NCBI GenBank assembly: GCA_964444465.1
Contig: CAYUGZ010000004.1
Location: 1 to 57,167 of the forward strand
Origin: Candidatus Woesearchaeota archaeon
GTDB taxonomy: Archaea > Nanobdellota > Nanobdellia > SCGC-AAA011-G17 > JACPNG01
Reading direction: 5' to 3'
Length of the DNA: 57,167 nucleotides
This document shows positions 13,444 through 50,108 of the stretch, in pieces (position 1 is the stretch's first letter; the number at the start of each line of letters is the position of its first letter). Below the pieces are notes generated by a model. The model searched no databases and had not been told where the DNA came from. It saw only the letters and a list, made by a program, of their open reading frames with translations. A program made the position numbers and the translations under genes.

Positions 13444-13455
13444 TTTATAGAAAGA

Positions 13456-14094: not shown

Positions 14095-14100
14095 TTCTAA

Positions 14101-14385: not shown

Positions 14386-14406
14386 TATTAATTCTTTAAG
14401 TTTATG

Positions 14407-14949
14407 TTATCTACTAAGAATACTACCTAAACGTCCAAATTTAGGCACAATGATGTATTCTGGAGAAAGAGCCCTATAAGAACCTTCTCCTTTTTCAATA
14501 TAATGTATTCTAGAATCATCCATTTCTTTTTCTATTAAAAATTGTTTTTTTTCAAAATCTTTTCTTGTCTTATGTTTTGAAAAACTCAATAAAGTTGATT
14601 CTTCCCTTTGATATCTTCCATTCTTTTTTGAGGTAGGAATTATGTTCCAACTAGTTGATTTTTCATCTTCTTCAACACTAAAATTATTGTCCTTAAAATA
14701 TTCAACTAAAGGCTTTACAAATTCTTTAAAATCGCCCCCAGTAACTAAAGCTTTAGCAACTACTACATCTATATCTGAAGTTCCTCTTCTTAATCTAGAA
14801 GCCATGTAACTCTGAACAGCTATTCCTCCAACAATAAGTGAAGAATCAGCTGAATTAGGATAACTCTCTAATGCAGATATAGCACTAAGTGAATCTCTTA
14901 CAACTAGATCATCAATATTTCTTAAATCAAATTGTCCCTTTTTTACCAT
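14407..14949 (-). CDS. small pol-beta-fold nucleotidyltransferase (AbiEii/MNT-like)
   Basis: VGGIAVQSYMASRLRRGTSDIDVVV fits the hG[GS]...DxD nucleotidyltransferase signature; 180 aa. Confidence 0.6.
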   Translation of the reverse strand: MVKKGQFDLRNIDDLVVRDSLSAISALESYPNSADSSLIVGGIAVQSYMASRLRRGTSDIDVVVAKALVTGGDFKEFVKPLVEYFKDNNFSVEEDEKSTSWNIIPTSKKNGRYQREESTLLSFSKHKTRKDFEKKQFLIEKEMDDSRIHYIEKGEGSYRALSPEYIIVPKFGRLGSILSR

Positions 14950-15076
14950 TAACTATCATTGATTTTTTGACTTTTAAACCTTTCTATTAGTAATTATTGT
15001 ATAGTAGTAATGAATAGTAAGATCTGCTTAACTGTGCTTATCTGAAAGGCTTATAAATATTAAATAAAAGAGTCTA

Positions 15077-15379
15077 TTGAAGATGATACATTCAAGTATG
15101 CATTCTAACTGGAAAAAAAGTAAATTAGAATTGAGATTAGAAAAAAAAGGATGGATACTAACCTCCCAGAGACCAGAAGAACCATCAACTGACTTTGAGA
15201 AGAATCAGTTTAGATATTTAAGGGCTAATAATATAGAATTTAGAGTAATTAAAACAGTTTATGATAGAGATGGTATAACTCAACTACCTGGTTTTATTGC
15301 CATTTATGTCAAAGAAGATGAAATTCCAGAGTATAAACCTATTTTATTCTCCCTTATAACTGGAGAAAGAGTGGATTAG
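15077..15379 (+). CDS. hypothetical protein
   Basis: 100-aa ORF with BRE/TATA-like gaaagg-cttataaata upstream. Confidence 0.4.
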   Translation: MKMIHSSMHSNWKKSKLELRLEKKGWILTSQRPEEPSTDFEKNQFRYLRANNIEFRVIKTVYDRDGITQLPGFIAIYVKEDEIPEYKPILFSLITGERVD

Positions 15380-15541
15380 AATTATATAGAATTAAATAAT
15401 AATTTAGGTTACACATAATGTGTCTTAAGTGTAATTTTATATCGACAAAACATATAATTTTTGATTAAATGTTTTAAGCACAATATTAATTTATCTTTTT
15501 CTATGATACTTTCTTTTTATTCTTTGATATTCTATTGCTTG

Positions 15542-15865
15542 TTAATTATATTCATTTCTTAATTCTTTATAATCTCTAATTATGCCTAAAGGATCTATTT
15601 TTTGATCATATTTTTTAAAGAAAGGATTGAGGGATAACTTAAATATACAAATACTATTGACTAAACTTAATGCACTTCTAGAATTAAAATAATCACTTTC
15701 AATTTTTCCTTCTGTCCCTTTCACCATAGATCTACATACTCTAATCTGATCTTTTATTTTTTCAGCTGGAGAAGATTGATTTGCAGCTAATGAAAAATCA
15801 GGATTGAAAACTAATGCTGTTAGACCAACTAAAGTTCCAGCCATTAATAAATTAAGCTTAGACAT
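15542..15865 (-). CDS. small secreted/membrane-anchored protein
   Basis: N-terminal signal-like MSKLNLLMAGTLVGLTALVF. Confidence 0.45.
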   Translation of the reverse strand: MSKLNLLMAGTLVGLTALVFNPDFSLAANQSSPAEKIKDQIRVCRSMVKGTEGKIESDYFNSRSALSLVNSICIFKLSLNPFFKKYDQKIDPLGIIRDYKELRNEYN

Positions 15866-15950
15866 TATTTAATTTAATAGATGTATTGTTTAAATATTTA
15901 ATTATAGTAGGGAAAAAAGTTTATTAATAATAAAATACGTTATCTTAAAG

Positions 15951-16517
15951 ATGGTTTTTAATTTTTTTAAGAAAAAAAGTGATCCTCATAAGAGATTAGA
16001 TGATCTACATTTTCATTTAGGTGATTCTTTTACAAAAATAAAAAAAGATATTGTTAATTTAGGGAATTGGATAACTCATTTTGATTCTAAAACAAAAAAT
16101 CATGAAGATAAATTAAATTATGTTCTCAGGAAATTAGAATTATTAGAAAATTTGTTACAAGAAAAAGAAGATGTTGTTGAAAATGAAGAAAAAGTTGAGA
16201 AAAAGGAGGAGACGATTGAACGCATTCAATCGTTCAATCGTTCAAATCAATCGATCATGAACGTTCAATCGCTAAAAAATCTCACTCCAGCACAAAAACA
16301 GATACTTGCTTTGATGAGTTATGCTGGTGGGCCACTCGGCTATGATGATATGTCAAAAAAATTAGGGTTAAATATTGTAACAGTTAGAAGACATTTGAAT
16401 GATATCAAAAGAAGTGGTATAAAAGTAGAAGAAAAAGTGAGTGTAAGAGGGAGAAAAAAAGTATTTCTTTTAGATAAAAAAGTCAAAAATGTAGTGTTAA
16501 AACAAAGAAAAAAATGA
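15951..16517 (+). CDS. coiled-coil + C-terminal winged-helix protein (paralog of 16890..17483)
   Basis: N-terminal DSFTKIKKDIVNL motif, coiled coil, QSFNRSNQSIMNVQS linker, then an HTH (GYDDMSKKLGLNIVTVRRHLNDIKRSG). Confidence 0.6.
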   Translation: MVFNFFKKKSDPHKRLDDLHFHLGDSFTKIKKDIVNLGNWITHFDSKTKNHEDKLNYVLRKLELLENLLQEKEDVVENEEKVEKKEETIERIQSFNRSNQSIMNVQSLKNLTPAQKQILALMSYAGGPLGYDDMSKKLGLNIVTVRRHLNDIKRSGIKVEEKVSVRGRKKVFLLDKKVKNVVLKQRKK

Positions 16518-16570
16518 TAATTCTACCCTCTAGATAGTATAAAAATAACCATTTATACAACAGATTATCT

Positions 16571-16892
16571 GAAAAGTGAGGGTTAATAAGTTAAATTATT
16601 GATGAAATATGTAATTATTTCGCTTAATTATAAGGAAAAGTGAGTTTATTATGGATTATACCGAATATAATATGTAAAATAATGATAATTTTAAGAAATA
16701 TAGCCTCTTTATTGTATAATATGTGAAAAGTGAGAGTTCATAACATAGATTATCAATAAAATAGGTAGCCATTGAGTAGATAGGATAAAAAAAGTGAGTT
16801 TATAGTGAATTCAGCTAGATATTCTCCATAAAAGTGAGGTATTTTAGGAAAAAATGGGTAATTATGTAGAAATATGTGAAAAGTGAGGGTTA
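16571..16892. repeat. array of six AAAAGTGAG(N)TT iteron-like direct repeats
   Basis: Copies start at 16571, 16635, 16725, 16789, 16829 and 16878, giving spacings of 64, 90, 64, 40 and 49 nt. All are in the same orientation. The last copy overlaps the stop codon of 16890..17483. Confidence 0.7.
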
Positions 16893-17483
16893 GATATCTG
16901 AAAGCCTCTTCTGATCAGGATCCATCTGATAATAGAGACTAACAAGTTTAGGTTTTAATCCTAATTCTCTAAATTTTTTATCTATAGAAAGATAAGTGAG
17001 TCTATTATTAATTCTGTTTCTTTTTATTGGGGCTTTCTTTTTTATTGCCATGCTTATATATGAACGTACACATGATTCTGTAAGTGAGATTTTATCAGCA
17101 ATATCGGAATAAGTGACTTTTTCCTTCTCATCTTCCAATTGATAGAGTGTAAGCAGTGCAAGAAGCTGCCCCCTAGAAAGTGCCTCTATAACGTCTATAA
17201 TGGCAAACGGGTGATTGATTGATTGATTGATTGATGATTGATTGATTGATTGAACCCCTTGATTTCCTATGGAACTTTTTATGAAATATTGTTCATTAGG
17301 CTCTATCTCCTCAAAATTCTGCGTTTTTTCATTTTTTTCAGAAATTAGTGTTTTTATCAAATCCACAAGCTCGATAATCCTCTCCTTATTCTTATCTATC
17401 TCTAATTTTAATAGATCCATATCTTCTTTTACACTAGAAAAAGCATTTTTTATATTGTTCTCAAAATTAGGATCATTACTCAT
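16890..17483 (-). CDS. coiled-coil + C-terminal winged-helix protein (paralog of 15951..16517)
   Basis: N-terminal NAFSSVKEDMDLL motif, coiled coil, QSINQSSINQSIN linker, then an HTH (TYSDIADKISLTESCVRSYISMA). Confidence 0.6.
   Translation of the reverse strand: MSNDPNFENNIKNAFSSVKEDMDLLKLEIDKNKERIIELVDLIKTLISEKNEKTQNFEEIEPNEQYFIKSSIGNQGVQSINQSSINQSINHPFAIIDVIEALSRGQLLALLTLYQLEDEKEKVTYSDIADKISLTESCVRSYISMAIKKKAPIKRNRINNRLTYLSIDKKFRELGLKPKLVSLYYQMDPDQKRLSDI
17214..17254. repeat. tetranucleotide microsatellite (GATT)5-GAT-(GATT)4 inside a CDS
   Basis: Read directly. On the coding strand it is (AATC)n, encoding the QSIN repeats. Confidence 0.85.
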
Positions 17484-17502
17484 TTTACGACGACAAAATT
17501 AA

Positions 17503-17931
17503 TTAACCTATATAGTCACCCTTCTCTCCTTTAGTTGGAGAACTTAGTTCTACTAAGGGTAACCTAATATGTGGTGGTAAATTAACTTGTTGTGATAATT
17601 CTAATGCTTTAATATTGCATTTTATAAGGATAAAATTAGTAATTAATGTCATCAACTCTTTATCTAACTTTTTTGTTTTTGTCCAAGTATCCATTATCTC
17701 TTTTATTTTTTTAGTCTCTTCTCTAAATAATAGATGACCATTAATCTTCATGTTGCCTACATCTTGTTTGTATTCTGTTGTAAATTCAAACTCAAATTTA
17801 AGAAGATTATCTCTTTTAGGAACTAAGCTAACATTACTTAGTTTCATGTTATTTTCTACTTTAATATCTTTAGTTACTTGAGCAATTCTCTCTGCTAATA
17901 ATCTATCAATATCAAAAGATATAACTGGCAT
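17503..17931 (-). CDS. hypothetical protein
   Basis: 142-aa ORF with host-like composition. Confidence 0.45.
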   Translation of the reverse strand: MPVISFDIDRLLAERIAQVTKDIKVENNMKLSNVSLVPKRDNLLKFEFEFTTEYKQDVGNMKINGHLLFREETKKIKEIMDTWTKTKKLDKELMTLITNFILIKCNIKALELSQQVNLPPHIRLPLVELSSPTKGEKGDYIG

Positions 17932-19741: not shown

Positions 19742-20002
19742 ATGTCTAGGCTCTCAGATAAGACTTTAGAAAAGATAAAGAATGATATCTTATATGTGTT
19801 ATACGAGGCTAAATTAAATGGCATGTTCACTAAACACATAGGAGATGAGATAGCTAGAGATGATGAGTTAATTCTTAGATTGTTAAAAGACATGGAGAAT
19901 GCTAACCTTGTAAAGAAGATTAGCAACTTTAAAAGAAGAGTAAAATGGGTGATGACTGAAGAGGCTTATTCTAAATATAAGGAGATGTTAGGCCCTGTTT
20001 AA
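19742..20002 (+). CDS. small winged-helix protein
   Basis: 86 aa. [42 protein letters not shown]. Preferred over the antisense ORF 19714..19926. Confidence 0.5.
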
Positions 20003-21865
20003 TTTTTTTAATATATGTTGTTTTCCTTTCCAATCTAATGCTTCTTTTAGAACCTCTTGTATTGTTGAAACTGGAACAATTTTAATCTTCCTTAACTTTT
20101 CTTTTGATAGAATAATATCTTTCTCATTTGGCCTAGGAACTATAACTTTTTTCACTCCAGCTTCTATGGCTGCCTCAACTTTTTGTGTAACTCCCCCTAC
20201 AGCTAAAACTTCTCCCCTAACAGATAATGATCCAGTTAAAGCTACTTCTTGCTTGATTGGAACTTTCTTTAATGCTGAGATGATTGCTGTTGCTACTGCG
20301 ATAGATGCTGAGTCACCCTCTACACCTTCATAAGACTGCAAAAATTGAATAAAAATATCATACTCATCTTTAATATCGTCTCCGAAATTTTTTAAGATAA
20401 TAGCTGAAACATTTTGAACAGCTTCTTTTGCTATCTCTCCTAATTTTCCTGTAGCCACAAACTCTGCTTTTTTTCCTCCAGGAGTTACTTCAGATTCAAT
20501 TGGAAGCACAATTCCAGAAAATGAGGATCCTGAACCAATAACTGCCAATCCATTAACCCTTCCAATCCTATTTCCTTTTGTTATAATAACTTCATATTTC
20601 TTTTTATTTTCAATATATTTATCAGCTATTTGTTGTTCTAAAGTTCTTGATAATTTTTTAGCTTCAATTAAATGTTTTTTTTCAACTAATTTTGAATTTT
20701 GTTCTTTAGCTAAATCTCCTGCTGCTCTCACTAATCCTCCAAGCTCTCTTAATCTTAATGTTAATTTATTAGCTACCCCTGCTGCTTTTTTAGCTTCCTC
20801 AATCATTTCATTTACAGCATCTTGAGAAAAATGTGGAATCTTTTTATCTTTAGAAACTTCTTGAGCTATAAATTGGGTAACTTTTTCTCTGTTTTTTTCG
20901 TTATCATCCATTGTTGTGTTCATATAAATCTCATAACCATAACCTCTAATTCTAGATCTTAAAGCAGGGTGCATTTTTTGGATTGTTTCCATATTTCCTG
21001 CAGCAACTAAAATAAAATCACAAGGAACTGGTTCAGATCTTGTTTGAGCCCCGGAACTTCTCTCACTTTGTCCAGTTATTGGATATTTCTTTTCTTGTAA
21101 TGCAGTTAATAGTTCTTGTTGAGATCTCATTGATAAAGTTCCAACTTCATCAACAAATAAAACCCCTCCATTTGCTTTATGTATCATTCCAGGAATTAAT
21201 CTTTCATAAGCCGGAGTTCCTAATCCTCCAGATTGTAATGGGTCATGCAATACATCTCCTAATAATGCTCCTGCATGTGTTCCTGTTGCGTCAAAAAATG
21301 GAGCATGTCTATTTTCAGAGTTGTCAATTAATAATTTTGCTACTTTTGATTTCTCACTTAGGTTCATTCTTTTTCCTAAATTTAAGAATAACATAAATCC
21401 TATAATGAAAACCATTGATGAAATCATAGAAGCTGCATAAATAACATCTGATATTGCTCCTGTCTTCCAAAAGTAATATGGAATTAAACTTACAACAAGA
21501 ACAACAACTAATAAAATTAAAGATTGATTTTTAAAAGAAGACATTGCTTGTATCTTTTGTTTGGTAACTAAGGATTTTCCTTGTCCTTTTGACATTGTCC
21601 TTATTAATGGGGCATTATCGTCATTTGGATTTGGTAAAGCTAATATGTCTGATAGAATTTCCATTGGTAACAACTCAGATAAGGCTTGGCCGATCATACT
21701 TTTACCTGTTCCAGGATCTCCAATTAATAAAACATTTCTTCTTTGTTTAGCTGCTTTTTTAACAATAGAAATAGCTGGGTCTTGGCCAATAACTTGATCT
21801 ACTACACCCTTAGATATTTTTACATCTTTTGTAGATTTATATTTCATTTTATTAGATAAAATCAA
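19988..21865 (-). CDS. lon: archaeal membrane-bound Lon protease (LonB)
   Basis: Walker A GDPGTGKS, two TM helices inserted in the AAA domain, Ser-Lys protease domain (GDSASIA). Confidence 0.9.
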
Positions 21866-21910
21866 GAGTTATATGGTATAATATGGTGTTTAAAAATCTA
21901 TCTTTTAGAA

Positions 21911-22174
21911 TTAAGACATATCATCTTCTGATACAACTACAAAATCACCAACCGCAATAACTGATGAATATGGAATTGTTAATTCATTACTATCATTCCT
22001 TTCTAAATCTAGTTCTGTAGCAAAACTTGTTGGATTTTTTAATATAATGTGAATTAATTCCCCTGTTCTTGTTTCAAAAGATATGTTTCCAACTTCTCCA
22101 AATCTTTTTCCAGATTTAGTTACTACAGTCTTCCCAACAATCTGTTTAGAATATTTTTTATCTTCTTCTGCCAT
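21911..22174 (-). CDS. PRC-barrel domain protein
   Basis: GKTVVTKSGKRFGEVGNISFETRTGELIHIIL pattern. Confidence 0.55.
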   Translation of the reverse strand: MAEEDKKYSKQIVGKTVVTKSGKRFGEVGNISFETRTGELIHIILKNPTSFATELDLERNDSNELTIPYSSVIAVGDFVVVSEDDMS

Positions 22175-22199
22175 TTTTATTATATTAGATATTTTATCG

Positions 22200-22499
22200 T
22201 TATTTATAAATTTTTCTAGTATCTAAAAAATTTGTTGTATTAACTGAATTAAACAATTCAGATTCATCTAATCTATCTTTAATATCTGAAAAAACTGCTG
22301 CAGAGGTTATTATTAATTTATTATCTGTTTTAAGTAAATTATTTTCTAAAAGATATCCACTTGATGCTAATGATACTAAAGCTATTAAAAAAAATAAAAT
22401 TATTAATTTTGATATTTTTGAGACAAAATGGTGTTTAAAATATTCCATAAAAATGAATGCTGCTATCACCACACCAACAATATAAAGCCAATTAACCAT
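22200..22499 (-). CDS. small membrane protein
   Basis: Two predicted TM segments. Confidence 0.45.
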   Translation of the reverse strand: MVNWLYIVGVVIAAFIFMEYFKHHFVSKISKLIILFFLIALVSLASSGYLLENNLLKTDNKLIITSAAVFSDIKDRLDESELFNSVNTTNFLDTRKIYK

Positions 22500-22547
22500 T
22501 AAATTATATATTTATTTATTATATAAAATTTACTTGTCAAAATAATA

Positions 22548-22953
22548 CCTTCTTAGGAATGGAAAAATTAAATCAAATAATAATTAACCCTCACACCCTT
22601 ATATTTCGTATGGAGTTATTTTTATTAAAAATTCTCTTTAATTCGTAAATACAAGCTTTATAGCATTAAAATAATAAATAATCTTAATTTAATTAATAAA
22701 TAATATAAAAATTATAAATAGTTGATATAAGCTCTAAAACTTGAAAATTTTAATGATTTATTTTTTCTTTTTATTTATATATTATAAATATTTATATTAT
22801 ATTATATTTATATTATTAATCATAATTACTTTTGAGTATAACAAATTTGTTGTCATTCTATAGTTCCATAAGAAGAAAAGGTGTAAATATTTTATTAAAT
22901 AACAAAAAAATTTATTTTTACTGAAATATTTGTTCCAAAGGAAATAAAGGTGG
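22548..22953. other. probable chromosomal replication origin (oriC) with ORB-like elements flanking an AT-rich unwinding region
   Basis: Direct elements are gttccataagaagaaaaggtg (22863..22883) and gttccaaaggaaataaaggtgg (22932..22953). Inverted relatives are ccttcttaggaatggaaaaa (22548..22567) and cgtatggagttat (22607..22619). About 240 bp of nearly pure A/T lies between them. The region sits immediately upstream of orc1/cdc6. Confidence 0.55.
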
Positions 22954-23002
22954 TGCTGTGTTGTAATAATCTTTAAATAATATTTTAATAGTTTTTATTG
23001 AA

Positions 23003-24220
23003 ATGAGGCAAAAAGAGTTGGATGGTTTCTTTGAAAAATTTCTTGAAAAAGATCCACTATTTATCAATAAAAAAGCTTTACAAGGTAATTATACTCCTAA
23101 AAATCTTCCACATAGAGAAGAACAAATAAATCAAATAGCTGGAGTTTTAGCTCCTGCTTTAAGAATGGAAAAACCTTCTAATATTTTTATATATGGAAAG
23201 ACTGGGACTGGCAAAAGTTTGTGTGTAAATTATATTGCTGATAATTTATTAGTTACAGCAGAAAAAAATAAAATTCCTCTAAAAATAATTTATATAAATT
23301 GTAAATTAAAGAGGGTAGCAGATACAGAATATAGATTAATTGCACAATTAACTAGGGAATTTGGGGTAGATGTTCCTGCAACAGGATTACCTACAGAAGA
23401 AGTTTACAAATTATTTGTTAAACAATTAGATAAAGAAAAAAGATTATTATTAATAATTTTAGATGAAATTGATCAATTAGTTCATAAAACAGGAGATGAA
23501 ATCTTATACAATTTAACAAGATTAAATAATGAGTTGAAAAATTCTGAAGTAACGTTAATTGGGATAAGTAATGATTTGTTGTTTGTTGACAATTTAGATC
23601 CTAGAGTAAAAAGTAGTTTGAGTGAAGAAGAATTAGTTTTCCCACCATATAATGCAATTCAATTACAAAGTATCTTAAAACAAAGAGCAAAATTGGCCTT
23701 TAGAAAAGATGTTATTGAAGAAGGAGTTATAGAAAAATGTGCAGCTTATGCTGCTCGAGATCATGGGGATGCTAGAAGAGCATTAGAATTATTAAGAGTT
23801 GCTGGAGAAATAACTGAAAGAAAAAATGAAAATAAAATTATAGTTCAACATATAGATGGAGCAGAAGATAAGATAGAGAGAGATAGAGTCTTAGAACAAG
23901 TTAATACACAACCAAAACAATTCAAATTAACATTATATTCTATTTTCAATGTCTGTACTAATGGGAATAGTAATGGAAATCCAATTTTTACAGGAGATAT
24001 TTATGAAATTTACAAACAATCATGCATTAATTGTGGATTAAAACCATTAACACAAAGAAGAGTTTCAGATATAATTGCAGAATTAGATATGTTAGGCATG
24101 ATAAATGCTAAAGTTATTAGTAAAGGAAGATATGGAAGAACAAGAGAAATAAAATTAGCAATCCCAAATGCAACCATCCCAAAAATTAATGATATACTAA
24201 AAGAGGGCTTAGGTTTATGA
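23003..24220 (+). CDS. cdc6: Orc1/Cdc6 replication initiator
   Basis: AAA+ Walker A GKTGTGKS, Walker B ILDEID, DHGDARRALELLR, and a C-terminal winged helix. Confidence 0.92.
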   Translation: MRQKELDGFFEKFLEKDPLFINKKALQGNYTPKNLPHREEQINQIAGVLAPALRMEKPSNIFIYGKTGTGKSLCVNYIADNLLVTAEKNKIPLKIIYINCKLKRVADTEYRLIAQLTREFGVDVPATGLPTEEVYKLFVKQLDKEKRLLLIILDEIDQLVHKTGDEILYNLTRLNNELKNSEVTLIGISNDLLFVDNLDPRVKSSLSEEELVFPPYNAIQLQSILKQRAKLAFRKDVIEEGVIEKCAAYAARDHGDARRALELLRVAGEITERKNENKIIVQHIDGAEDKIERDRVLEQVNTQPKQFKLTLYSIFNVCTNGNSNGNPIFTGDIYEIYKQSCINCGLKPLTQRRVSDIIAELDMLGMINAKVISKGRYGRTREIKLAIPNATIPKINDILKEGLGL

Positions 24221-25674
24221 GGGAAGTTATAAAATCCTTTATGGATAAAAAAATTCTTTTAAGCCCAGAGGTTATTGAAAATATTAATGAAGATAATTTA
24301 GATTTAATTGAAAAATTAAATAAAAAAAATATAATAGTTCTAACTAATGATTTATTGAATGGAGATAAAGAAGAAAAAACAGAAATTAAAAAAGATAATA
24401 AAGAAGATTTAGATAGAAAAGTAAAAATAATAAAAAGTTATGAAGCTGATCCTCAAAAAATAGAAGTTAAAGATTTTGTTTCTCATTTTAAATCTAGATA
24501 TAATAAAATAAAAAATATTTTAGTGAACAGACAAGATCTACAAGATGTTTTATCAATAAATAAAGGAATCGAAAAAAATAATACAAATGTTTCATTTATT
24601 GGATTAGTTTTTAGTAAAGATCTAACAAAAAATGGAAATATTGTGATTAAATTAGAAGATATAACTGGAGAAGTAACTGGAATAATCAATCAAGAAAAAG
24701 AATGTTTTGAGATAGGGAAAAATTTAGTTTTGGATGAGGTTATTGGGATTAAAGGTTTTATAAGAAATAAAGTTTTATTCATAAATAATATTTATATCCC
24801 TGACACACCATATAATAAAGAATTAAAAAAATCTGAAGATGAAGTTTATGCCGCATTTATTAGTGATGTACACATAGGGAATAAAGTATTTTTAAAAGAA
24901 GAATTTGAGAAATTTATTGAATGGATAAATGGAGAGTTAGGGGATGAAAAACAAAAAGAATTATCTTCTAAAATAAAATATCTCTTTTTAGTTGGAGATT
25001 TAGTGGATGGAATTGGGATTTACCCAGATCAAGACAAAGAATTAATCATTCCAGACATTAGAGAACAATATGAATTATTAGCAGATTATTTAGGGAAGAT
25101 AAGAAAAGACATAAGCTTAATTGTTGGTCCAGGAAATCACGATGCAATGAGATTAAGTGAGCCTCAACCATATTTGGATAAAGATTTAGCAAAGAGTGTT
25201 TGGGATTTACCAAATACATTTTTAGTTAGCAATCCTGCTTTAATTAATATTCATTCTTCTGATGATTTTAGTGGATTTGATGTTTTGATGTATCATGGGA
25301 ATAGTTTACATTATTTTATAGATAATGTTGATACTTTAAGATTAGGGAACGCAAGAGATAATGCAAGTTTAGCAGCTAAATTTTTAATGCAGAAAAGACA
25401 TTTAGCCCCAACACATGGCTCTGATGTTTATATGGCTTCTAAAGAAGATAATTTAGTTATAGAAGACATTCCTGATTTTTTTGTTTTAGGGGAGATGCAT
25501 AGGCCAGATTCAACTAATTATAATGGGACAACAATAATTAATTGTTCATGTTGGCAAGGAAAAACACCTTATCAAGAAAAAATGGGAAACAATCCTTTAC
25601 CAGCTAGAGTTTCTATTGTTAATCTAAAAACAAGAGAGATAAGCAATATAAAATTTGATGAAAATGATAAATAA
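24217..25674 (+). CDS. polB: DNA polymerase D (II) small subunit DP1
   Basis: OB fold plus calcineurin-like phosphoesterase domain (SDVHIG, GDLVDG, GNHD). The start overlaps the cdc6 stop (ATGA). Confidence 0.92.
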   Translation: MREVIKSFMDKKILLSPEVIENINEDNLDLIEKLNKKNIIVLTNDLLNGDKEEKTEIKKDNKEDLDRKVKIIKSYEADPQKIEVKDFVSHFKSRYNKIKNILVNRQDLQDVLSINKGIEKNNTNVSFIGLVFSKDLTKNGNIVIKLEDITGEVTGIINQEKECFEIGKNLVLDEVIGIKGFIRNKVLFINNIYIPDTPYNKELKKSEDEVYAAFISDVHIGNKVFLKEEFEKFIEWINGELGDEKQKELSSKIKYLFLVGDLVDGIGIYPDQDKELIIPDIREQYELLADYLGKIRKDISLIVGPGNHDAMRLSEPQPYLDKDLAKSVWDLPNTFLVSNPALINIHSSDDFSGFDVLMYHGNSLHYFIDNVDTLRLGNARDNASLAAKFLMQKRHLAPTHGSDVYMASKEDNLVIEDIPDFFVLGEMHRPDSTNYNGTTIINCSCWQGKTPYQEKMGNNPLPARVSIVNLKTREISNIKFDENDK

Positions 25675-28600
25675 ATATTTTGATGATATAGAAAAAGAAG
25701 TGAATAAATGTTATGAATTAGCTAACAAAGCTAGAGCTTTAAATTTAGATCCTGAAGATAAATCTGAAGTTATTCTTGCAAGAAATATGGTAGAAAGAGT
25801 TGAGGGACTAATAAGTACTGTTGCCCCTCAAATTAAAAATAGTGGAATGGCCGAAAGGATAGTTGAGTTAGAAGAAGAATATGATAAATTAGATTGGAGA
25901 GTTGCATTAAAAATTGCTTTAGAAGTTGCCCAAGCAAAATTTTGTGAGTTTAAAGATAAAAGAGAAGCAATGGAAGTAGGAATTAGAGTATCTTTAGCTT
26001 ATTTAACTTCAGGAGTTGTATCTAGTCCTTTAGAAGGTTTTGTTGCATTAAAGATTAAAGAAACAAATGACTCGAAAGAATATTTTTGTTTGATGTTTGG
26101 AGGCCCAATAAGAAGTGCAGGAACAACAATAATTTGTGGAATGTTATTAGCTGCAGATTATGTTAGAAAAAATATGGGTTACGCTCCTTATGATCCAAGT
26201 GAACAAGAAGTAAAAAGGATGGTAACTGAACTTTATGATTATCATGAAAGAATTACAAATTTACAATATCTTCCAAGTGAAGAAGAGATTGAATTTTTAA
26301 TGAGAAATCTATCTTTACAAATTTCAGGAGACCCAACAGAGAAAGTTGAGGTTAGCAACTATAAAAATCTCCCAAGAATAGAAACTGATTTTATTAGGAA
26401 TGGTCCTTGTCTAGTTTTAGGAGAAGGATTAGCACAAAAATCACCAAAAATGTGGGTTAAGATATCTAAATGGAAAGATGATTTTAACTTACAAAATTGG
26501 GATTACATAAATGATTTTGTTAAACTACAAAAAAAGATAAGATCTAAAGGTGAAGTAAAAAAAGAAACAGAAAAAATAGCTCCAGATTATAATTACATTA
26601 AAGATTTAGTTGCAGGACGTCCAATTTTAACTCATCCATTAAGAACTGGAGGATTTAGATTGAGATATGGGAGATCTAGAATTTCTGGGTTGAGTAGTAT
26701 GGCAATGCATCCAGCTACAATGATAATTTTAGATGAATATATTGCTACAGGAACTCAATTAAGATATGAAAGACCTGGAAAATCAAGTGCAATGGAACCT
26801 TGTGATACTATTGAAGGGCCAATTGTTAAATTAAAAAATGGAGATGTTTTATTTTTAGATTCAGAACAAGAAGCCAAAGATAATTTAAAGAATGTTAAAG
26901 AAATTATATTTTTAGGAGACTTTTTAGTTAATTATGGGGAATTTTTTAATAGAGGCCATAGATTAGTTCCTTGTGGTTATAATGAAGAATGGTATCAACA
27001 AGAAATAAAAAAATTAAATACAAAAGATAAACTAATTGAAAAATTAAAGAGAGACAGATTTTTTAAAATAACAGCAAAACAAGCTTTTGAATTATCTAAA
27101 GAACATAAAATTCCTTTACACCCAAGATATACTTATCATTGGAATGATCTTGATAAAGAACAATTTAACAGTTTTATAGAATGGTATAAAAAAGGAAGTT
27201 TGAATGAATCTAAAATATTACTTCCATTTGTTTATGATTTAACATCAGAAATAAAAGAAAGAGATCCTAAAAGAGTTTTAGAATTACTTGGAGTGCCACA
27301 TAAAGTAGCTGAGAAAGAGTATGTTGTAATAGAAGGAGATCATGCTTACACACTTTATAATATTCTTAAATTAGATAAACTACCAAAAGAAGGGAATGTA
27401 TTAGAATTAATAAATAAAATTTCTAAAATTATTATAAGAGATAAATCTGGAACTTTTATTGGAGCTAGAATGGGTAGACCTGAAAAAGCTAAGCTCCGAA
27501 AATTAACAGGAAACCCACATATGTTATTTCCAGTTGGAGATCAAGGTGGAAGAATGAGGAATTTACAAACAGCTTTGACTAAAGGAAAAATAACATCAGA
27601 ATTTTCAACCTTTTATTGTAATAAATGTAAAAAAGAAACTATTTATCCAAAATGTGAAGTTTGTGAAGAAAAAACTGAAATGGGTGGATTTAAGAGAAGA
27701 AACATTGATGTTGATCATTATTTTAAACAAGCACTAAAAAAAATAAAATTAAAAGAATATAATGAATTGATTAAAGGAGTGAGGGGAACTTCTAATAAAG
27801 ATCATATTCCTGAAAATATGGCTAAAGGAATTCTGAGAGCACAATATAATTTGAATGTTAACAAAGATGGAACTATAAGATATGACATGACTGAAATGCC
27901 AATAACTCATTTTAAAGCTAAAGAAATTGGAACAAGTATTGAAAAATTAAAAAAATTAGGTTATGAAAAAGACATTAATGGTAAAGAATTAGAAAATGAA
28001 GATCAATTAATAGAGATAAGACCACAAGATGTTATTCTTCCAGCATGTGATGAAGCTCGTGAAGAAGGAGCAGATAAAGTTCTAACAAGAATTGCTAATT
28101 ACATTGATGATTTATTAGTTAAATTTTATGGATTGAAGAAATTTTATAATGTTAAACAAAGAGAAGATTTAATTGGACATTTAGTTATTGGATTAGCTCC
28201 CCATATAAGTGCAGCAATTATTGGAAGAATAATTGGATTTAGTAAAACACAAGGATGTTTTTCACATCCATTATGGCACTCTGCACAAAGAAGAGATTGT
28301 GAAGGTGATGAAAATTGTGTTATGTTGTTAATGGATTCTTTATTGAATTTTTCTAGACATTATCTACCAAATAATAGAGGAGCAACACAAGACACACCTT
28401 TAGTATTAACTTCTATATTAACTCCAAGTGAAGTAGATGATATGGTTTTTGATATGGATCTGGTTTGGGAATATCCTCTAGAGTTGTATGAAGCAGCACA
28501 AGAATATAAAGATCCTAGAGAAATAAAAATCGAACAATTAATTAATAGATTGGGAAAAGAATCTCAATTTGAAGATTGGGGATTTACTCATGATGTTTCT

Positions 28601-29044
28601 GATATGAACATTGGAATTGTATGGAGTGCTTACAAAAAAATTCCTTCAATGATGGAAAAAGTTTTAGGTCAGATGGAAATTGCTTCTAAAATAAGAGCTG
28701 TAGATGAGATTGATGTTGCTAGATTAACTATAGAGAGACATTTTATAAGAGATATAAAAGGAAACTTAAGAAAATTCTCAATGCAACAATTTAGATGTGT
28801 TGCTTGCAATGAAAAGTTTAGAAGACCCCCTTTATCTGGTAAATGTACAAAATGTAATGGAAAATTAATTTTTACAATATCCCAAGGTAGTATTGTTAAA
28901 TATTTAGCACCAAGTATGCAGCTAGCAGAACACTATAATGTTTCTAATTACTTAAAACAGACTTTAGAGTTGACTAAGCAAAGAATAGAGGGTGTTTTTG
29001 GAAGAGAAAAAGAAAAACAAGAAGGATTAACGAAATGGTTTTAA
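25655..29044 (+). CDS. polC: DNA polymerase D (II) large subunit DP2
   Basis: 1129 aa with conserved DP2 blocks (GRPEKAK, GLAPHISA, CEGDEN, C-terminal Zn motif CVACNEKF...CTKCNG). No intein is evident. Confidence 0.93.
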   Translation: MMKMINKYFDDIEKEVNKCYELANKARALNLDPEDKSEVILARNMVERVEGLISTVAPQIKNSGMAERIVELEEEYDKLDWRVALKIALEVAQAKFCEFKDKREAMEVGIRVSLAYLTSGVVSSPLEGFVALKIKETNDSKEYFCLMFGGPIRSAGTTIICGMLLAADYVRKNMGYAPYDPSEQEVKRMVTELYDYHERITNLQYLPSEEEIEFLMRNLSLQISGDPTEKVEVSNYKNLPRIETDFIRNGPCLVLGEGLAQKSPKMWVKISKWKDDFNLQNWDYINDFVKLQKKIRSKGEVKKETEKIAPDYNYIKDLVAGRPILTHPLRTGGFRLRYGRSRISGLSSMAMHPATMIILDEYIATGTQLRYERPGKSSAMEPCDTIEGPIVKLKNGDVLFLDSEQEAKDNLKNVKEIIFLGDFLVNYGEFFNRGHRLVPCGYNEEWYQQEIKKLNTKDKLIEKLKRDRFFKITAKQAFELSKEHKIPLHPRYTYHWNDLDKEQFNSFIEWYKKGSLNESKILLPFVYDLTSEIKERDPKRVLELLGVPHKVAEKEYVVIEGDHAYTLYNILKLDKLPKEGNVLELINKISKIIIRDKSGTFIGARMGRPEKAKLRKLTGNPHMLFPVGDQGGRMRNLQTALTKGKITSEFSTFYCNKCKKETIYPKCEVCEEKTEMGGFKRRNIDVDHYFKQALKKIKLKEYNELIKGVRGTSNKDHIPENMAKGILRAQYNLNVNKDGTIRYDMTEMPITHFKAKEIGTSIEKLKKLGYEKDINGKELENEDQLIEIRPQDVILPACDEAREEGADKVLTRIANYIDDLLVKFYGLKKFYNVKQREDLIGHLVIGLAPHISAAIIGRIIGFSKTQGCFSHPLWHSAQRRDCEGDENCVMLLMDSLLNFSRHYLPNNRGATQDTPLVLTSILTPSEVDDMVFDMDLVWEYPLELYEAAQEYKDPREIKIEQLINRLGKESQFEDWGFTHDVSDMNIGIVWSAYKKIPSMMEKVLGQMEIASKIRAVDEIDVARLTIERHFIRDIKGNLRKFSMQQFRCVACNEKFRRPPLSGKCTKCNGKLIFTISQGSIVKYLAPSMQLAEHYNVSNYLKQTLELTKQRIEGVFGREKEKQEGLTKWF

Positions 29045-31675: not shown

Positions 31676-34612
31676 ATGAAAAAAATAATATTATTAACAT
31701 TATTGGTATTGTTAACTATTAGTATAACTTATGCAGATCATACTTCTCAATATCCAAGAAGAGAAGATACTCCTTGCGGTAGGGATACTTGTTTTTATCC
31801 TTTTTATGGTCCAATTTTATATGGACAAGTTTGTACAACAGATAGACTTGGCCATTTATCTTCAGCGGGATCTGTCTCTCCTTCGTGTGAAGGTGTTTTT
31901 GTAGGGACAAATTTAAGAAATAAAAATGAACTTTCAATTTTTGATAGAACTAATAGAGGTACTGCTAAATTTTATAAACAATCTTCAAAAAATTCCCCAA
32001 CAGAAATTGGTCCAGGTGGTTGCGATTTAGGACAAGTTTGTAATAATGGTTGTCAATGTGAAACTGTAGATGGAGATTTAGATGGATTTCTTGGAAGTTC
32101 TTTTGCACATTATACTTATTCGAATACACAAATAGATTGTAATGATAAAGATGCAAGTGTTTTTCCAGGAGCAGATGAAGTTTGTAATCTCAAAGATGAT
32201 AATTGTGATGGTCAAGTAGATGAAGGAGGAGTTTGCAAAAAATCAGTTAGAGTTTGTAGGGACCTTCAACAAGAAGACATTAGTAATGAAGTTTGTAATC
32301 AAGGAGAGTATTGTAGTACTTCTTCATTTAATGATGAAGCTAGCTGTAAATATATCACACAACAAAGTGACATAGGATTAAATGAATTTTTTACTTTTTT
32401 TTGTGATGAATATTTGCCAGATGGAGATTATGGATGTGTAAGATTTGTTGAGAGTAGTTTTAGAGTTTGTACAGTAGATGAACAGGATTTATGTGATGAC
32501 AACCAAGATAATGATTGTGATGGAAGAATAGATAATTTAGATACAGATTGTGGATTTGTTGTAGCTGGATGTAATAATGGACAATTAGATCAAGGTGAAC
32601 AATGTGATGCTTCTAATCTAAATGGAGCTACATGTTTAAGTGTTAGTTCTAGTTTTACTGGAGGGACATTAAGTTGTAAGAATGATTGTCAATTTGATAT
32701 ATCTCAATGTACTACTGAAACTTTTATCTGTTCTCCTGGAGAAACAAGAATTTGTTATCCTGCAAATGGTGGGGATGAAGTATCAAATTATTTAGAAACA
32801 TGCGGAGCTAATGGGCAATATGGTTCATGTGAACCTCAACCTATAGAAACATGTACAAATGGTGATGTTAGACCTTGCCCTAGAGTTTTAGGTGTTTGTG
32901 AAGGGAAAACACAAACTTGTTCAAATGGACAATGGCAAGCATGTAGTTATGGTTCTAATTTTAATTTAGTTGATACATGTAGTGATAGTTTAGATAATAA
33001 TTGTAATAGTTTAATTGATGAAAATTGTGATTGTAATGTAGGAGATACAAGAGGATGTTCAACAGACACTGGAGTTTGTAATTTAGGAACTCAGATATGT
33101 CAAGAAAATGGAAAATGGAGTAGTATTTGTGGAGGATCAACACTTCCTGGATTAGAAGTATGTGATGGATCAGATAATAATTGCGAAGGAGGAGTAGATG
33201 AAGGATGTGATTGTACTAACCAAGGATCTACTAGAAGTTGTGGGGGACCTAACCAAGGAATTTGTAAAGAAGGAACCCAAACATGTAGTCTAGTTAATGA
33301 TTTGTTAAAATGGAGTGTTTGTGATGATGCAGTTCTTCCAGGAATAGAAATATGTGATAATATAGATAATAATTGTAATGGCGCAATAGATGAAGGTTGT
33401 CAATGCAGTATAGGAGATTCAAAAAGTTGTGGAACTTCAATTGGGGTTTGTACTAGTGGAACACAAGAATGTCTTAATAGTTTATGGAGTGTTTGTTTAG
33501 GAGCAATACTTCCAATAACTGAGTTATGTGGTGATAATGTAGATAATGATTGTGATGGATCAATAGATGAAAGTTGTACATGTAATCAAGGAGAAACAAG
33601 AGCTTGTGCATTAAATGATGGAGTTTGTAGTGGTTTAACACAAACTTGTTCAAATGGATTATTTAATTCTTGCAATTATACTTCCACACAAAATTATGAG
33701 CAGATTGAAACAAATTGTTTAGACAATAAAGATAATGATTGTGATGGAAAAATAGATGATTTAGATACAGATTGTCAAGGTTCAGGAGAATCATGTTCTG
33801 ATGGAACAAATGATAATTCATGTAGTACAAACAAACCAAATCGTTGTAATGATGGGGTGTTAGAAAATAAATGTGCTATTTGTGGTTGTGAAGATGAAGA
33901 ATTGTGTAAACCTGATGGAAGTTGTATTATCTCAAGACCTAGAACACAAACACAACAAACCCCTCCAGTTTCATCTAAAGATTCAGATGGTGATGGATTA
34001 ACAGATGAAGAAGAATTAGCATTAGGTTACAATCCATTTAATTCAGATACTGATGGAGATGGAATTTTAGATGGAGAAGATTTAACTCCATTGTGTAATG
34101 AAAATGGAGTTTGTGATTCTGAAGGAGATTACCCAGAAACAAAAAATAATTGTCCTGCTGATTGTCAAGAAGAAAAAGGATTTAATTTATGGATTTTATT
34201 TATAATTTTATTTATAATTCTATTAATTTCAGGAGGCTTAGGTTATTATTATTGGAAAATTAAGAAAAAAGGAAAGAAAAAAGATGACAAAAAATCTTTA
34301 TTTCCATTTTTAGGTGTTTTGAAAAGAAAATCAAAATACAAACCAATTAAGAAAGATGTTTTAGAACCAATGCCTGTTTTTAAAAGTAATAATTTTAAAG
34401 AGCATGCTAATATTCAAGATTTACAAAATTATATTAAAGATGGAGTGAAGAAAGGACATTCATTAAGTTATTTAAAATCTAAATCTTTGAATGTGGGCTG
34501 GTATAAAGATGAAGTAAACAAAGCAACTTCACTACCTTCATTACTTCATAAAAAACCTTTACATAAAAAAGGAAAAATTTCTAGAAGACTATTACGTCAT
34601 AAAAGAAAGTAA
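31676..34612 (+). CDS. large Cys-rich surface protein (MopE-like and myxo-type Cys repeats, TSP3-like Ca-binding repeats, C-terminal TM anchor)
   Basis: Signal peptide, DCNDKDASVFPGADEVCNLKDDNCDGQVDEGG, and five tandem modules of about 60 aa. Also DSDGDGLTDEEE/DTDGDGILDGED, TM LWILFIILFIILLISGGLGYYYW and a Lys-rich tail. Confidence 0.7.
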   Translation: MKKIILLTLLVLLTISITYADHTSQYPRREDTPCGRDTCFYPFYGPILYGQVCTTDRLGHLSSAGSVSPSCEGVFVGTNLRNKNELSIFDRTNRGTAKFYKQSSKNSPTEIGPGGCDLGQVCNNGCQCETVDGDLDGFLGSSFAHYTYSNTQIDCNDKDASVFPGADEVCNLKDDNCDGQVDEGGVCKKSVRVCRDLQQEDISNEVCNQGEYCSTSSFNDEASCKYITQQSDIGLNEFFTFFCDEYLPDGDYGCVRFVESSFRVCTVDEQDLCDDNQDNDCDGRIDNLDTDCGFVVAGCNNGQLDQGEQCDASNLNGATCLSVSSSFTGGTLSCKNDCQFDISQCTTETFICSPGETRICYPANGGDEVSNYLETCGANGQYGSCEPQPIETCTNGDVRPCPRVLGVCEGKTQTCSNGQWQACSYGSNFNLVDTCSDSLDNNCNSLIDENCDCNVGDTRGCSTDTGVCNLGTQICQENGKWSSICGGSTLPGLEVCDGSDNNCEGGVDEGCDCTNQGSTRSCGGPNQGICKEGTQTCSLVNDLLKWSVCDDAVLPGIEICDNIDNNCNGAIDEGCQCSIGDSKSCGTSIGVCTSGTQECLNSLWSVCLGAILPITELCGDNVDNDCDGSIDESCTCNQGETRACALNDGVCSGLTQTCSNGLFNSCNYTSTQNYEQIETNCLDNKDNDCDGKIDDLDTDCQGSGESCSDGTNDNSCSTNKPNRCNDGVLENKCAICGCEDEELCKPDGSCIISRPRTQTQQTPPVSSKDSDGDGLTDEEELALGYNPFNSDTDGDGILDGEDLTPLCNENGVCDSEGDYPETKNNCPADCQEEKGFNLWILFIILFIILLISGGLGYYYWKIKKKGKKKDDKKSLFPFLGVLKRKSKYKPIKKDVLEPMPVFKSNNFKEHANIQDLQNYIKDGVKKGHSLSYLKSKSLNVGWYKDEVNKATSLPSLLHKKPLHKKGKISRRLLRHKRK

Positions 34613-35793
34613 AGGACAACTGGGATGATTAAAGAGCCCATTAAATGACTTCTTCCTGTGTTTTTTAAGATTGGAATCATTCCTACACTTGTAGCTACTA
34701 ATAAAACAAACAAACCAGTTAATCCTGTAAGAAAAGTAACTAAAGAAATTATCAAAAAAATAATGATCATAGTTATTTTAGCATAATTTATTTTATTTAT
34801 TATCTTTGAAAATAGTCTAGATAATTTTAATGTTAAAAAAGTAGCTAATCCAGCAACAACAAGAGAAGATCCTAAAAATAAGATTAAATGATTTAATGTT
34901 ATATCTTCCATAATTTTAGATACAACAACAATAACCCCATTTCTTGCTCTATCAATCACATATAATGCAATAAATGAAATAACCATAACAATTGTGTTTA
35001 TAGAACCTAATAAAACTATAAAGCCTTTACTACTTAATTTTCCAGTAAGATTTGATGCAAGAATGGCTGCTTGTGCTGCACCCAATCCTGGAAGAAAACC
35101 AGCTAATGAAGAAGCTATAAATCCACCACTAAAAGCTTTTATTGATTCTCCTTTATTAATCTTTATTTCTTCAATCTTTTGTTCTGGCAAAGTTATTTTA
35201 TTTTTCAAACTTATTAATAAATTACTAGTCCCAAACAACCCAGAAAATAAAGGAAATAAAGGTTGTTTCATATTTAAATTTAAAACTCCCAATCCTAACA
35301 CCCCTGATAATAAAAATATAATTAATGACCATTTTTTATTCATATCTTTTAAGATTAAAAATAAAGAAGCTGTGATTAATATAAAAGGAATTAAAGGTTT
35401 GATTAAAGGATACCATTTGTCTACTAAAAATATTAGTAAAGGGGTTAATAATATTGTTATTATTAATCCAAATAAACTACCAAAAGTGCTTAGTTGTATT
35501 GCTTCATGACCTTTTCCTTCTAATAATAATCTATGAGCTGGAAGTATTGATAATGCTGTATCTGGATTTGGAGCCCCCAAATAAACAGAAGGAATAAAAT
35601 CTAAGAATGTATGTGCTACAGCCATTGATATTAATACAATGATTATTGAAATAGTAGAAAAATAATTTGATAAGATTGGAAATGAGGTTAAAGCTAAAAC
35701 AGCAATCAAATTTATATGTATTCCTGGAATTAATCCAGTTATAACTCCAAGTAATGTTCCAATTATTATTGAAATAAATACTTCAATAATCAT
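34597..35793 (-). CDS. polytopic membrane protein (TctA/DUF112-like)
   Basis: About 10 TM segments. GLIPGIH and GFLPGLGAAQAAILA motifs. Confidence 0.5.
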   Translation of the reverse strand: MIIEVFISIIIGTLLGVITGLIPGIHINLIAVLALTSFPILSNYFSTISIIIVLISMAVAHTFLDFIPSVYLGAPNPDTALSILPAHRLLLEGKGHEAIQLSTFGSLFGLIITILLTPLLIFLVDKWYPLIKPLIPFILITASLFLILKDMNKKWSLIIFLLSGVLGLGVLNLNMKQPLFPLFSGLFGTSNLLISLKNKITLPEQKIEEIKINKGESIKAFSGGFIASSLAGFLPGLGAAQAAILASNLTGKLSSKGFIVLLGSINTIVMVISFIALYVIDRARNGVIVVVSKIMEDITLNHLILFLGSSLVVAGLATFLTLKLSRLFSKIINKINYAKITMIIIFLIISLVTFLTGLTGLFVLLVATSVGMIPILKNTGRSHLMGSLIIPVVLYFLL

Positions 35794-45959: not shown

Positions 45960-46031
45960 ATCTAGATTGTTAATTAAGTATGGAAGAACACCATAATTCT
46001 TTAGTTTTAAATAATAATATAATAATTAATA

Positions 46032-46188
46032 AAATCAAAGTCTTTATATATCTCATATGTGTATTAGTTATGTATTGTATGTATGCAAGATGTACATAAT
46101 CTAATAGATACTAAAGACAAATGAAATCAAAGTCTTTATATATCTCATATGTGTATTAGTTGTGTATTGTATGTATGCAAGATGTACA
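46032..46188 (+). repeat. two 65-bp direct repeats (46032..46096 and 46124..46188, 1 mismatch), each carrying a BRE/TATA-like caaagtctttatatatc
   Basis: Aligned by eye with an offset of 92 nt. The only difference is a at 46070 versus g at 46162. Confidence 0.85.
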
Positions 46189-47613: not shown

Positions 47614-49116
47614 TCATTTAACAAGTTTTCCTGCTTTCTCAAATTTAATCTCTTTATCTAATAATTTATTTATAATTTCTCTTAAATCTTTTATCTTAAC
47701 TCTTATTTGTTTTTCAGTATCTCTATCTCTTATTGTAACATCTTTATTTTTTATAGAATCAAAGTCTATTGTTAAACAATAAGGAGTTCCGACCTCTGCT
47801 GCCCTTAAATATCTTTTACCAACAGAAGCAACATCATCATACACACAAACAAAATTTTTATCTAAATTATTTTTAATTTCTTTTGCTATCTTCATTAAAC
47901 TTGGCTTTTTAATAAGTGGAAATACCATCAAATCTATAGGGGTTAAATGATAAGGAAGTCTAAACATTGTTTTACCATCTTTTTTCTCTTTTTTCTCATA
48001 AAAGGTATCTAATAAAGAAAATACAGGCCTGTCTGTACCAAAAGCAATTTCTAGGATATGGGGAATGAATTTACTTCCATCTTCTCTTGTAGCCTCTAAA
48101 TTTTCTTTAGAATGTTCTCCGTGTTTCATTAGATCATAATCGGTTCTATCATGGACACCACAAACCTCTGTCCAACCAAAACTTCTTAATTTAATCTCAA
48201 TGTCCCATGCATCATCTGCATAAAATGCTTTTTCATCAGGATTATGTTGTCTTATTCTAATATTTGATTTAGGAACACCCATACTAATAAACTGCTGATA
48301 AGCTAACCATACACACCAAGCATATGCTTTTGTTTTTATTATTCTAGATTTTATTAAAGAATCAAGACTAACTAAATTAGGATCTTTTTTCTTTTTTTGT
48401 AGTTTATAATCCCACATTGGCAGTTTTAAATTTTTTATTTTGTTATATTCTGGCCAATTATCCTTTTCTACAGGATCAATAATAATTTGTGCTTCTGCTT
48501 GAGTAAATTCCCTTCCTCTTATGACATGTTGTCTTGGAGAAATCTCATTTCTATATGCTTTACCAATCTGAAATACACCAAATGGAAGTTTTTTCTTAAA
48601 GAACATATAATTTCTTTTGTAAGGAAGATAAGTAACAGTTGCTGTTTCTGGTCTTAAAGAAGCATCTTCTCCACCAACTTTAGTTTTCATCATTAATGAT
48701 TCATTTTTAATTTCATGTTTAAAATCACCTTTACAACTAGGACATTTAATCTTTTTTTGTTTGAATAATTTTAGAATTTCTTTACTATCTGTTATTCCTT
48801 CTTCTTCTAATAGATGATCTGCCCTAAACTTAGCTTTACATTTACTACATTCTATGATTGGATCATTAAATGTATCTAAATGACCAGAAGCTTTCCATAC
48901 TATGTCTGGTAGAATTGTAGGACCTTCTAATTCCCATATATCATTTGATTTAAAAATAGATCTTACAGAATTTTAAACTTTATTTTTTAATAATTATCCA
49001 AAAGGCCCATAAGTATAAAATACAGCCATTCCTCCATATATCTCTGGTTAAGGACCCCATATAAATCCTTTTTCTACTACAAAACTAATAAAGTCTTTTA
49101 GGAAATCATTGTTCAT
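47614..49116 (-). pseudogene. glyS: glycyl-tRNA synthetase (archaeal/eukaryal class II) interrupted by three in-frame TAA codons
   Basis: One continuous frame from ATG 49116 reads MNNDFLKDFISFVVEKGFIWGP*PEIYGGMAVFYTYGPFG*LLKNKV*NSVRSIF...SGHLDTFNDPIIEC...MMKTKVGG.... The stops are at 49050..49048, 48996..48994 and 48975..48973. Motif 2 (FRNEISPR..REFTQAE) and the anticodon-binding domain are intact. Confidence 0.8.
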
Positions 49117-49199
49117 CTTATTATTTATAATCTATAGTTTATAATTTTTATGATTCTTTTAATCTAAAGATTTTTAAATTTGATACTTCATTTTATTAC

Positions 49200-50108
49200 A
49201 TGAATAAAATAATCTTAGTTAAACCAAGGGGATTTTGTGCAGGTGTTGATAGAGCTATAGAAATAGTTGAAAAAGCTCTTGAAATTCACAAAAAAGTGTA
49301 TGTAAAACATCAAATTGTCCATAATACACATGTTGTAGAAGATTTAGAGAAAAAAGGAGTAATATTTGTAGAAGAGTTAAATGAAATTCCAAATGATAGT
49401 TTAGTTATCTTTAGTGCACATGGTGTTTCTCCAAAAGTTATAGAAGAAGCTAAAAAAAGAAACTTAAAATTTTTAGATGCTACTTGTCCTTTAGTAACTA
49501 AAGTTCATTTAGAAGCTATTCGATATAATAAAGAAAATTATTCTATAATATTAATAGGTCATAAAGGGCACCAAGAAGTAATTGGAACAATGGGGGAAGC
49601 TCCAATGTTTTTAGTAGGAAATATTGAAGATGTTAATAATTTAGATATTAATTCTGAAAAAATTGCTTATATAACTCAAACTACTTTAAGTTTAGATGAC
49701 ACAAAAAATATTGTGGATGCTTTAAAGAAAAAATATTTGAATATTGAATCTCCTAAATCTAAAGATATTTGTTATGCTACCCAAAATAGACAAAATGCAA
49801 TAAAAGAATTAACTAAAACTTGTGAATTAATTTTAGTTGTAGGGTCTAAAAATAGTTCTAATTCTAATAGATTAGTTGAAACTGCTGAACTTCATGGATG
49901 TAAATCTTATTTGATAGAAAATAAAAATTTTGTTGATGAAGAATGGTTAAAAAATGTTGAAAATTTAGGAATAAGTTCAGGTGCTTCTGCTCCAGAAATA
50001 TTAGTTCAAGAGTTAGTTGATGATTTGAAAAATAAATTTAATTGCAAAATAGAATATTCAAATATTATAGAAGAAAACATTAAATTTACTCTTCCTATGA
50101 TAAAATAA
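49200..50108 (+). CDS. ispH: 4-hydroxy-3-methylbut-2-enyl diphosphate reductase (IspH/LytB)
   Basis: Three cluster cysteines in GFCAGVDRAI, ATCPLVTKVH and ICYATQNRQ, plus SSNSNRL. Confidence 0.88.
   Translation: MNKIILVKPRGFCAGVDRAIEIVEKALEIHKKVYVKHQIVHNTHVVEDLEKKGVIFVEELNEIPNDSLVIFSAHGVSPKVIEEAKKRNLKFLDATCPLVTKVHLEAIRYNKENYSIILIGHKGHQEVIGTMGEAPMFLVGNIEDVNNLDINSEKIAYITQTTLSLDDTKNIVDALKKKYLNIESPKSKDICYATQNRQNAIKELTKTCELILVVGSKNSSNSNRLVETAELHGCKSYLIENKNFVDEEWLKNVENLGISSGASAPEILVQELVDDLKNKFNCKIEYSNIIEENIKFTLPMIK

Follow-up and report, generated by a model that had tools for sequence, protein, structure and literature searches.

The glycyl-tRNA synthetase gene (glyS) of a Candidatus Woesearchaeota archaeon is interrupted by three in-frame TAA codons in contig CAYUGZ010000004.1, which was analysed over its full length of 57,167 nucleotides and is referred to below as the window. 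These three codons belong to a single private patch of six substitutions, which is probably a sequencing or assembly artefact and no property of the organism. The patch is private to this contig, derived, clustered and composed of transversions only, and no other assembly of this population has it. If this explanation is right, glyS is the ordinary, functional, single-copy archaeal GlyRS gene of a marine DPANN (Nanoarchaeia) archaeon. Were the stops true of the organism, they would mean either TAA recoding in an archaeon or the loss of an essential synthetase in a symbiont, and either would be remarkable; the comparison with other assemblies points to a gene that is itself ordinary and to a defect confined to a short stretch of a single public record.

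The glyS Frame and Its Product

The window has a GC content of about 27% and is densely coded. When its minus strand was re-read, the 500-codon GlyRS frame of the original prediction was recovered, running from the ATG at 49116 to a TGA that ends at 47614, free of frameshifts and with TAA at codon 23 (49050-49048), codon 41 (48996-48994) and codon 48 (48975-48973). A protein search with this frame, in which the stops were masked, returned thousands of archaeal GlyRS, the best of which came from marine Nanoarchaeia/Woesearchaeota (DPANN) assemblies. The gene and the part of it that is still open are:

47614..49116, minus strand: glyS, dimeric (alpha2) archaeal/eukaryotic-type class II glycyl-tRNA synthetase; interrupted here, intact in the population allele P0121
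47614..48693, minus strand: longest uninterrupted ORF left in glyS, from Met142; this is gene call P0005 (358 aa)

The first in-frame start past codon 48 is Met142/143. A product begun at Met142 is missing positions 1-153 of the TIGR00389 profile and with them the N-terminal third of the protein, including the motif 1 region, which bears out the earlier statement that a product from the internal Met would be devoid of the N-terminal catalytic blocks. The truncated P0005 still scores 332 bits as a dimeric GlyRS. The intact allele passes both the equivalog cutoff of TIGR00389 (glyS_dimeric; 469 bits against 243.3) and the cutoff of NF003211 (464.4 bits against 312). Precomputed Pfam annotation assigns the class II catalytic core (PF00587) and the HGTP anticodon-binding domain (PF03129) to P0001-P0120, P0121 and P0005 alike. 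As for the uninterrupted frame expected of a dimeric GlyRS, it is absent from this record and present in eight contigs of the same population. When genome completeness or metabolism is scored, glyS of this record should be counted as intact.

The Gene in the Same Population and in a Sister Lineage

The 500-aa protein P0121 equals the GlyRS frame of the window save for five affected codons, and shares a 90% cluster with P0005. It is encoded on nine contigs from ENA, JGI, Tara and NCBI assemblies; the truncated P0005 occurs on one contig only. Eight of the nine (L011-L018) were compared with the window, whose gene order they share and with which they form gap-free alignments of up to 18.3 kb at 99.7-99.95% identity. 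In every one of them codons 23, 41 and 48 read GAA, AAA and GAA and an intact 500-aa protein is encoded, and the window differs from all eight at all six sites of the patch. The genes that neighbour glyS match their counterparts in the other contigs and relatives in length, and none of the other long genes of the window is broken, as had been claimed.

Similarly, nine contigs of a sister lineage (P0001, contigs L001-L010, about 89% nucleotide identity) carry the sense codons GAA, AAA and GAA at the three stop sites, and the outgroup L001 matches the intact allele at each of the six sites. Because the sister lineage shares the bases of the intact allele at six of six sites, the bases of the patch are the derived ones.

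With the addition of further same-population contigs (L019-L032), the comparison reaches 48,842 positions of the window, 29,979 of them with two or more contigs. Several of these further contigs show no difference from the window over 3-13 kb (100% identity). One contig, L027, carries in serS (window 7054 and 7116) a private pair of non-synonymous transversions 62 nt apart, similar in kind to the glyS patch. A metagenome contig collection was also searched with a lineage-specific pattern, in which the five sites were left free, and with a plain 62-mer; this collection does not contain the lineage and gave no match, and the lineage-specific pattern does recover all eight known same-population loci.

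Two further differences between contigs were observed in passing. In L020, 154 nt of tctA (35554-35707) hold 20 differences from the window, most of them synonymous, and look like a recombination tract, and L011 has a 12-nt deletion (34209-34220) in the gene for a 978-aa surface protein with MopE/TSP3 repeats (31676-34612).

A Private Patch of Six Substitutions

The original prediction described glyS as free of damage other than the three stops. This does not hold against the intact allele, from which the window also differs by G32V (49022), L39F (49000) and a substitution upstream of the gene (49163). The patch and its surroundings are composed as follows:

48975..49163, unstranded: patch with all six window-private derived transversions; no other private difference occurs among the 29,979 positions for which two or more other contigs are available
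48973..48975, minus strand: codon 48, GAA to TAA, Glu to stop (Glu nearly invariant); plus-strand 48975 C>A, coding strand G>T
48994..48996, minus strand: codon 41, AAA to TAA, Lys to stop (Lys in 11 of 11 aligned relatives); plus-strand 48996 T>A, coding strand A>T
49000..49002, minus strand: codon 39, TTA to TTT, L39F (Leu or Met in relatives); plus-strand 49000 T>A, coding strand A>T
49021..49023, minus strand: codon 32, GGA to GTA, G32V (Gly nearly invariant); plus-strand 49022 C>A, coding strand G>T
49048..49050, minus strand: codon 23, GAA to TAA, Glu to stop; plus-strand 49050 C>A, coding strand G>T
49163: intergenic substitution 47 nt upstream of the glyS ATG; plus-strand G>T
49117..49199, unstranded: divergent glyS/ispH intergenic region, 13% GC (0.133), which holds the sixth private substitution (49163)

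The position of codon 23 is occupied by Glu or Ser in 11 aligned relatives, and besides the three stops the patch holds two missense changes (G32V and L39F) at conserved residues. Each of the six changes is from a purine to T on one strand or the other. The five coding lesions span 76 nt and include no indel; the damage is without evolutionary age, because the other 1.4 kb or so of the gene carries no private change at all. The lowest 100-nt GC window that overlaps the patch lies at the 0.5th percentile of the contig.

The gene on the other side of the intergenic region, divergent from glyS, is a full-length ispH/lytB (49200-50108, plus strand; 432.8 bits on NF002188, cutoff 420), which encodes an enzyme of the bacterial-type MEP isoprenoid pathway, here in a DPANN archaeon. 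In the sister lineage, a LytB-family gene (PF02401) occupies the same position beside glyS.

The patch departs from the natural variation of the population in its density and in its spectrum. Six sites placed at random among 29,979 positions would crowd into a stretch of 189 with a probability of about 6e-11. All six changes are transversions, against 22 of the 67 other differences between the window and the contigs (Fisher p=0.002), and the changes at coding sites are all non-synonymous (5/5, against 21/62 elsewhere; p=0.007). Three are nonsense changes, of which there are none among the other differences. Where those other differences cluster, they form third-position tracts of the kind left by recombination. 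The nature of the stops themselves is less telling: a purine-to-T change in glyS yields a stop at 15-21% of purines, and TAA accounts for 85 of the 133 stops that could arise in this way. That all three stops are TAA is thus unsurprising, since GAA and AAA are abundant in this AT-rich gene and most purine-to-T stops are TAA. Their number, three among five coding changes, is mildly above expectation (p about 0.03-0.07).

A Probable Sequencing or Assembly Artefact

These features are those expected of an artefact: the changes are private to one assembly, the others agree with each other, and the cluster is on the scale of a read (189 bp) with a spectrum unlike that of natural polymorphism (6/6 transversions, 0/5 synonymous). 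An assembly or consensus error was among the options listed in the original prediction and is the best supported of them, although not as the three independent errors proposed there but as one clustered event of six substitutions.

As for the route, one or two erroneous or damaged-template reads may have been taken into the consensus at a very AT-rich and probably thinly covered spot, and local depth may drop over the 13% GC promoter region between glyS and ispH. A template with purine damage might also yield the pattern, provided that polymerases place A across from the lesions. It has been reported that the assembler MEGAHIT discards singleton k-mers and rescues some of them as mercy k-mers (PMC8021871), and such a rescue could let the consensus rest on a single read where depth fails. 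In Illumina data, substitution errors become more frequent toward the ends of reads, and on the MiSeq the substituting base is biased to G/T (PMC4787001), so that late-cycle miscalls biased toward T offer another possible route; one review (PMC4719071) held no useful information on the direction of Illumina miscalls. The patch has its five minus-strand changes to T at the left and its one plus-strand change to T at the right, and this layout fits the 3' tails of opposing reads. That error-like defects occur in such data is indicated by the similar private pair in serS of L027.

However, several points weigh against an artefact. Low coverage at this spot is an inference. The assembly is otherwise very clean, with no other private error in about 30 kb, and a local cause must therefore be assumed. 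It is also unusual for six errors to agree in one consensus where assemblers need a k-mer multiplicity of at least 2, and the proportion of stops among the coding changes is, as mentioned, somewhat above expectation. Finally, a genuine variant carried by one DNA molecule would produce the very same contig sequence.

Two other sources of miscalled bases were considered and rejected. Cytosine deamination is at odds with the absence of transitions (0/6 changes), and reads of other species cross-mapped during polishing would have brought in the sense codons that relatives have at these sites.

More generally, in-frame stops in environmental draft genomes call for caution, and a claim of recoding or gene loss should await a comparison with other assemblies of the population in question.

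A Possible Clustered Mutation in One Cell

It is also conceivable, though rather unlikely, that the patch is real DNA and that one cell or a minor clone acquired all six changes in one clustered mutational event, for example when a damaged stretch was copied by error-prone synthesis and A was placed opposite purines that had been lost or oxidised. Insertion of adenine opposite abasic sites or 8-oxoguanine leads to purine-to-T changes, and it is this direction that all six changes share. Their tight clustering and zero age are as a single event would leave them, and an otherwise flawless contig is obtained more easily from a true template than from a poor read. Such an event would have destroyed the sole glyS of the cell and left a dead allele without a future, and its capture would be explained by an assembly made from a single cell or very few molecules. 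However, the allele is absent from the eight other same-population contigs, and the truncated product is known from one contig only. For a cell with no other GlyRS gene, three stops in this one should be lethal, and a lethal allele would not be the majority allele in a metagenomic population; moreover, the contig alone cannot tell a mutation from template damage in vitro. The very recent pseudogenisation that the original prediction had considered survives only in this form, as a one-off lesion of zero age private to this assembly, and not as a fixed state of the organism.

Two biological sources for the six bases were rejected. The patch was not copied from a second glyS-like sequence or repeat in the window, where tblastn had no hit besides glyS and the blastn matches, none of them longer than 17 nt, were due to chance. 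DPANN archaea often carry diversity-generating retroelements; mutagenesis by such an element does not fit ancestral bases that are G and A, not adenine only, and a derived base that is uniform.

Unlikely Alternatives: An Established Pseudogene or a Recoded Gene

That glyS is an established pseudogene, in an organism which relies on a second glyS elsewhere or on supply by a host, is very unlikely. The stops do stand in the deposited record, in which the gene is called only from Met142. However, the scattered lesions, indels and relaxed constraint elsewhere in the gene that mark a decaying pseudogene were not found: there are no indels, all five coding lesions lie within 76 nt, and no further private substitution occurs in the remaining 1.4 kb. 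The population allele is intact and protein-identical on nine contigs, which argues for strong constraint. A second glyS was not detected in the window by tblastn, and 13 related genomes have one glyS locus each in a scan that finds only close relatives of the query.

Even less can be said for a local readthrough, a suppressor tRNA or a context-dependent recoding by which TAA would be decoded and full-length GlyRS produced, an option that is extremely unlikely. The glyS frame is otherwise complete and its stops fall where the GlyRS family has conserved residues. However, the comparison of the same codons in close relatives, which had been suggested as a check, found sense codons only, GAA, AAA and GAA, in the eight same-population and nine sister-lineage contigs, and so speaks against local readthrough or recoding; the stops are conserved in none of them. 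TAA is the commonest terminator of the window and ends 55 of its 80 ORFs of at least 100 codons, which agrees with the earlier view of TAA as the normal stop of many genes here. The tRNAs found in the window by ARAGORN are ordinary, namely Lys(CTT), Leu(TAG) and Met(CAT), with no suppressor bearing a UUA anticodon among them, and Rfam yielded no recoding RNA element in the window and no match beyond these three tRNAs. In addition, no single suppressor could bring back Glu as well as Lys, and recoding leaves the two changed conserved sense codons and the intergenic change unexplained.

No other gene of the window is interrupted by in-frame TAA. The only other candidates are found at 13153-14952 (minus strand), where four successive genes abut in one frame, separated by TAA and 2-7 codons. 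They were rejected as a second case, since every one of the ORFs has a Met of its own, none of the junctions is crossed by a Pfam domain and the exonuclease domain is complete within one ORF; they are separate genes.

Taken together, recoding and gradual pseudogene decay are effectively ruled out. It is hardly credible, too, that the mutated allele is real and carried by living cells which survive without an intact GlyRS of their own, whether by local readthrough of TAA or with GlyRS or charged tRNA-Gly supplied by a host. Global reassignment of TAA, which had already been judged unlikely, is rejected in view of its use as the main terminator (55 of 80 long ORFs).

Other Features of the Window

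The cumulative GC skew is at its lowest near 20-22 kb. Beside this minimum lies an AT-rich spacer of 500 nt with several inverted repeats (22500-23002), and then come orc1/cdc6 (23003-24220) and the genes of the two PolD subunits (24217-29044); the region 20000-29044 is a likely chromosomal replication origin.

A tRNA-Lys(CTT) gene (9438-9514) precedes a tyrosine recombinase gene (11000-11821; PF00589, 157 bits) and a series of small genes that match no family, with one for an Rv2179c-like 3'-5' exonuclease in their midst. This region is 100% identical in two other assemblies, and a mobile element may have integrated here (9438-17931).

At 46028-46188, in the space that separates the Alba gene from small ORFs, there are two direct repeats of 69 nt that are 97% identical and lie 92 nt apart from start to start. 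Each holds a TTTATATA box, and the repeats are also present in other contigs of the population; they look like a duplicated promoter or small-RNA unit.

Comparison with Known Systems

One likeness is to the artefactual stops of metagenome and single-cell drafts, which are consensus errors at places of thin coverage and extreme composition. As in these, the changes are found in one assembly only, over a stretch of read length and in a region of 13% GC, with a non-biological spectrum (transversions only, none synonymous) in a gene that is intact in other assemblies. Unlike the usual isolated miscall, the glyS patch consists of six substitutions with a uniform purine-to-T direction.

Kataegis-like clusters, which arise from damaged single-stranded DNA or translesion synthesis, share with the patch a tight grouping, a single class of mutation and an apparent strand coordination with one strand switch. 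However, the glyS patch bears no sign of an event in a living cell, and a template damaged in vitro gives the same pattern. To our knowledge, no archaeal process gives the spectrum of the patch.

Programmed recoding in archaea (UGA-selenocysteine, UAG-pyrrolysine) and stop reassignment likewise involve in-frame stops in an otherwise complete essential gene. Recoded stops, however, are conserved in relatives and either recur in other genes or come with dedicated tRNAs and signals, and none of this applies to the stops of glyS. Lastly, the aminoacyl-tRNA synthetase pseudogenes of extremely reduced symbionts also present stops in an essential translation gene of a host-dependent organism with a small genome. 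Genuine decay of a synthetase leaves scattered substitutions and indels and is lineage-wide, whereas the damage to glyS is local, private and of zero age.
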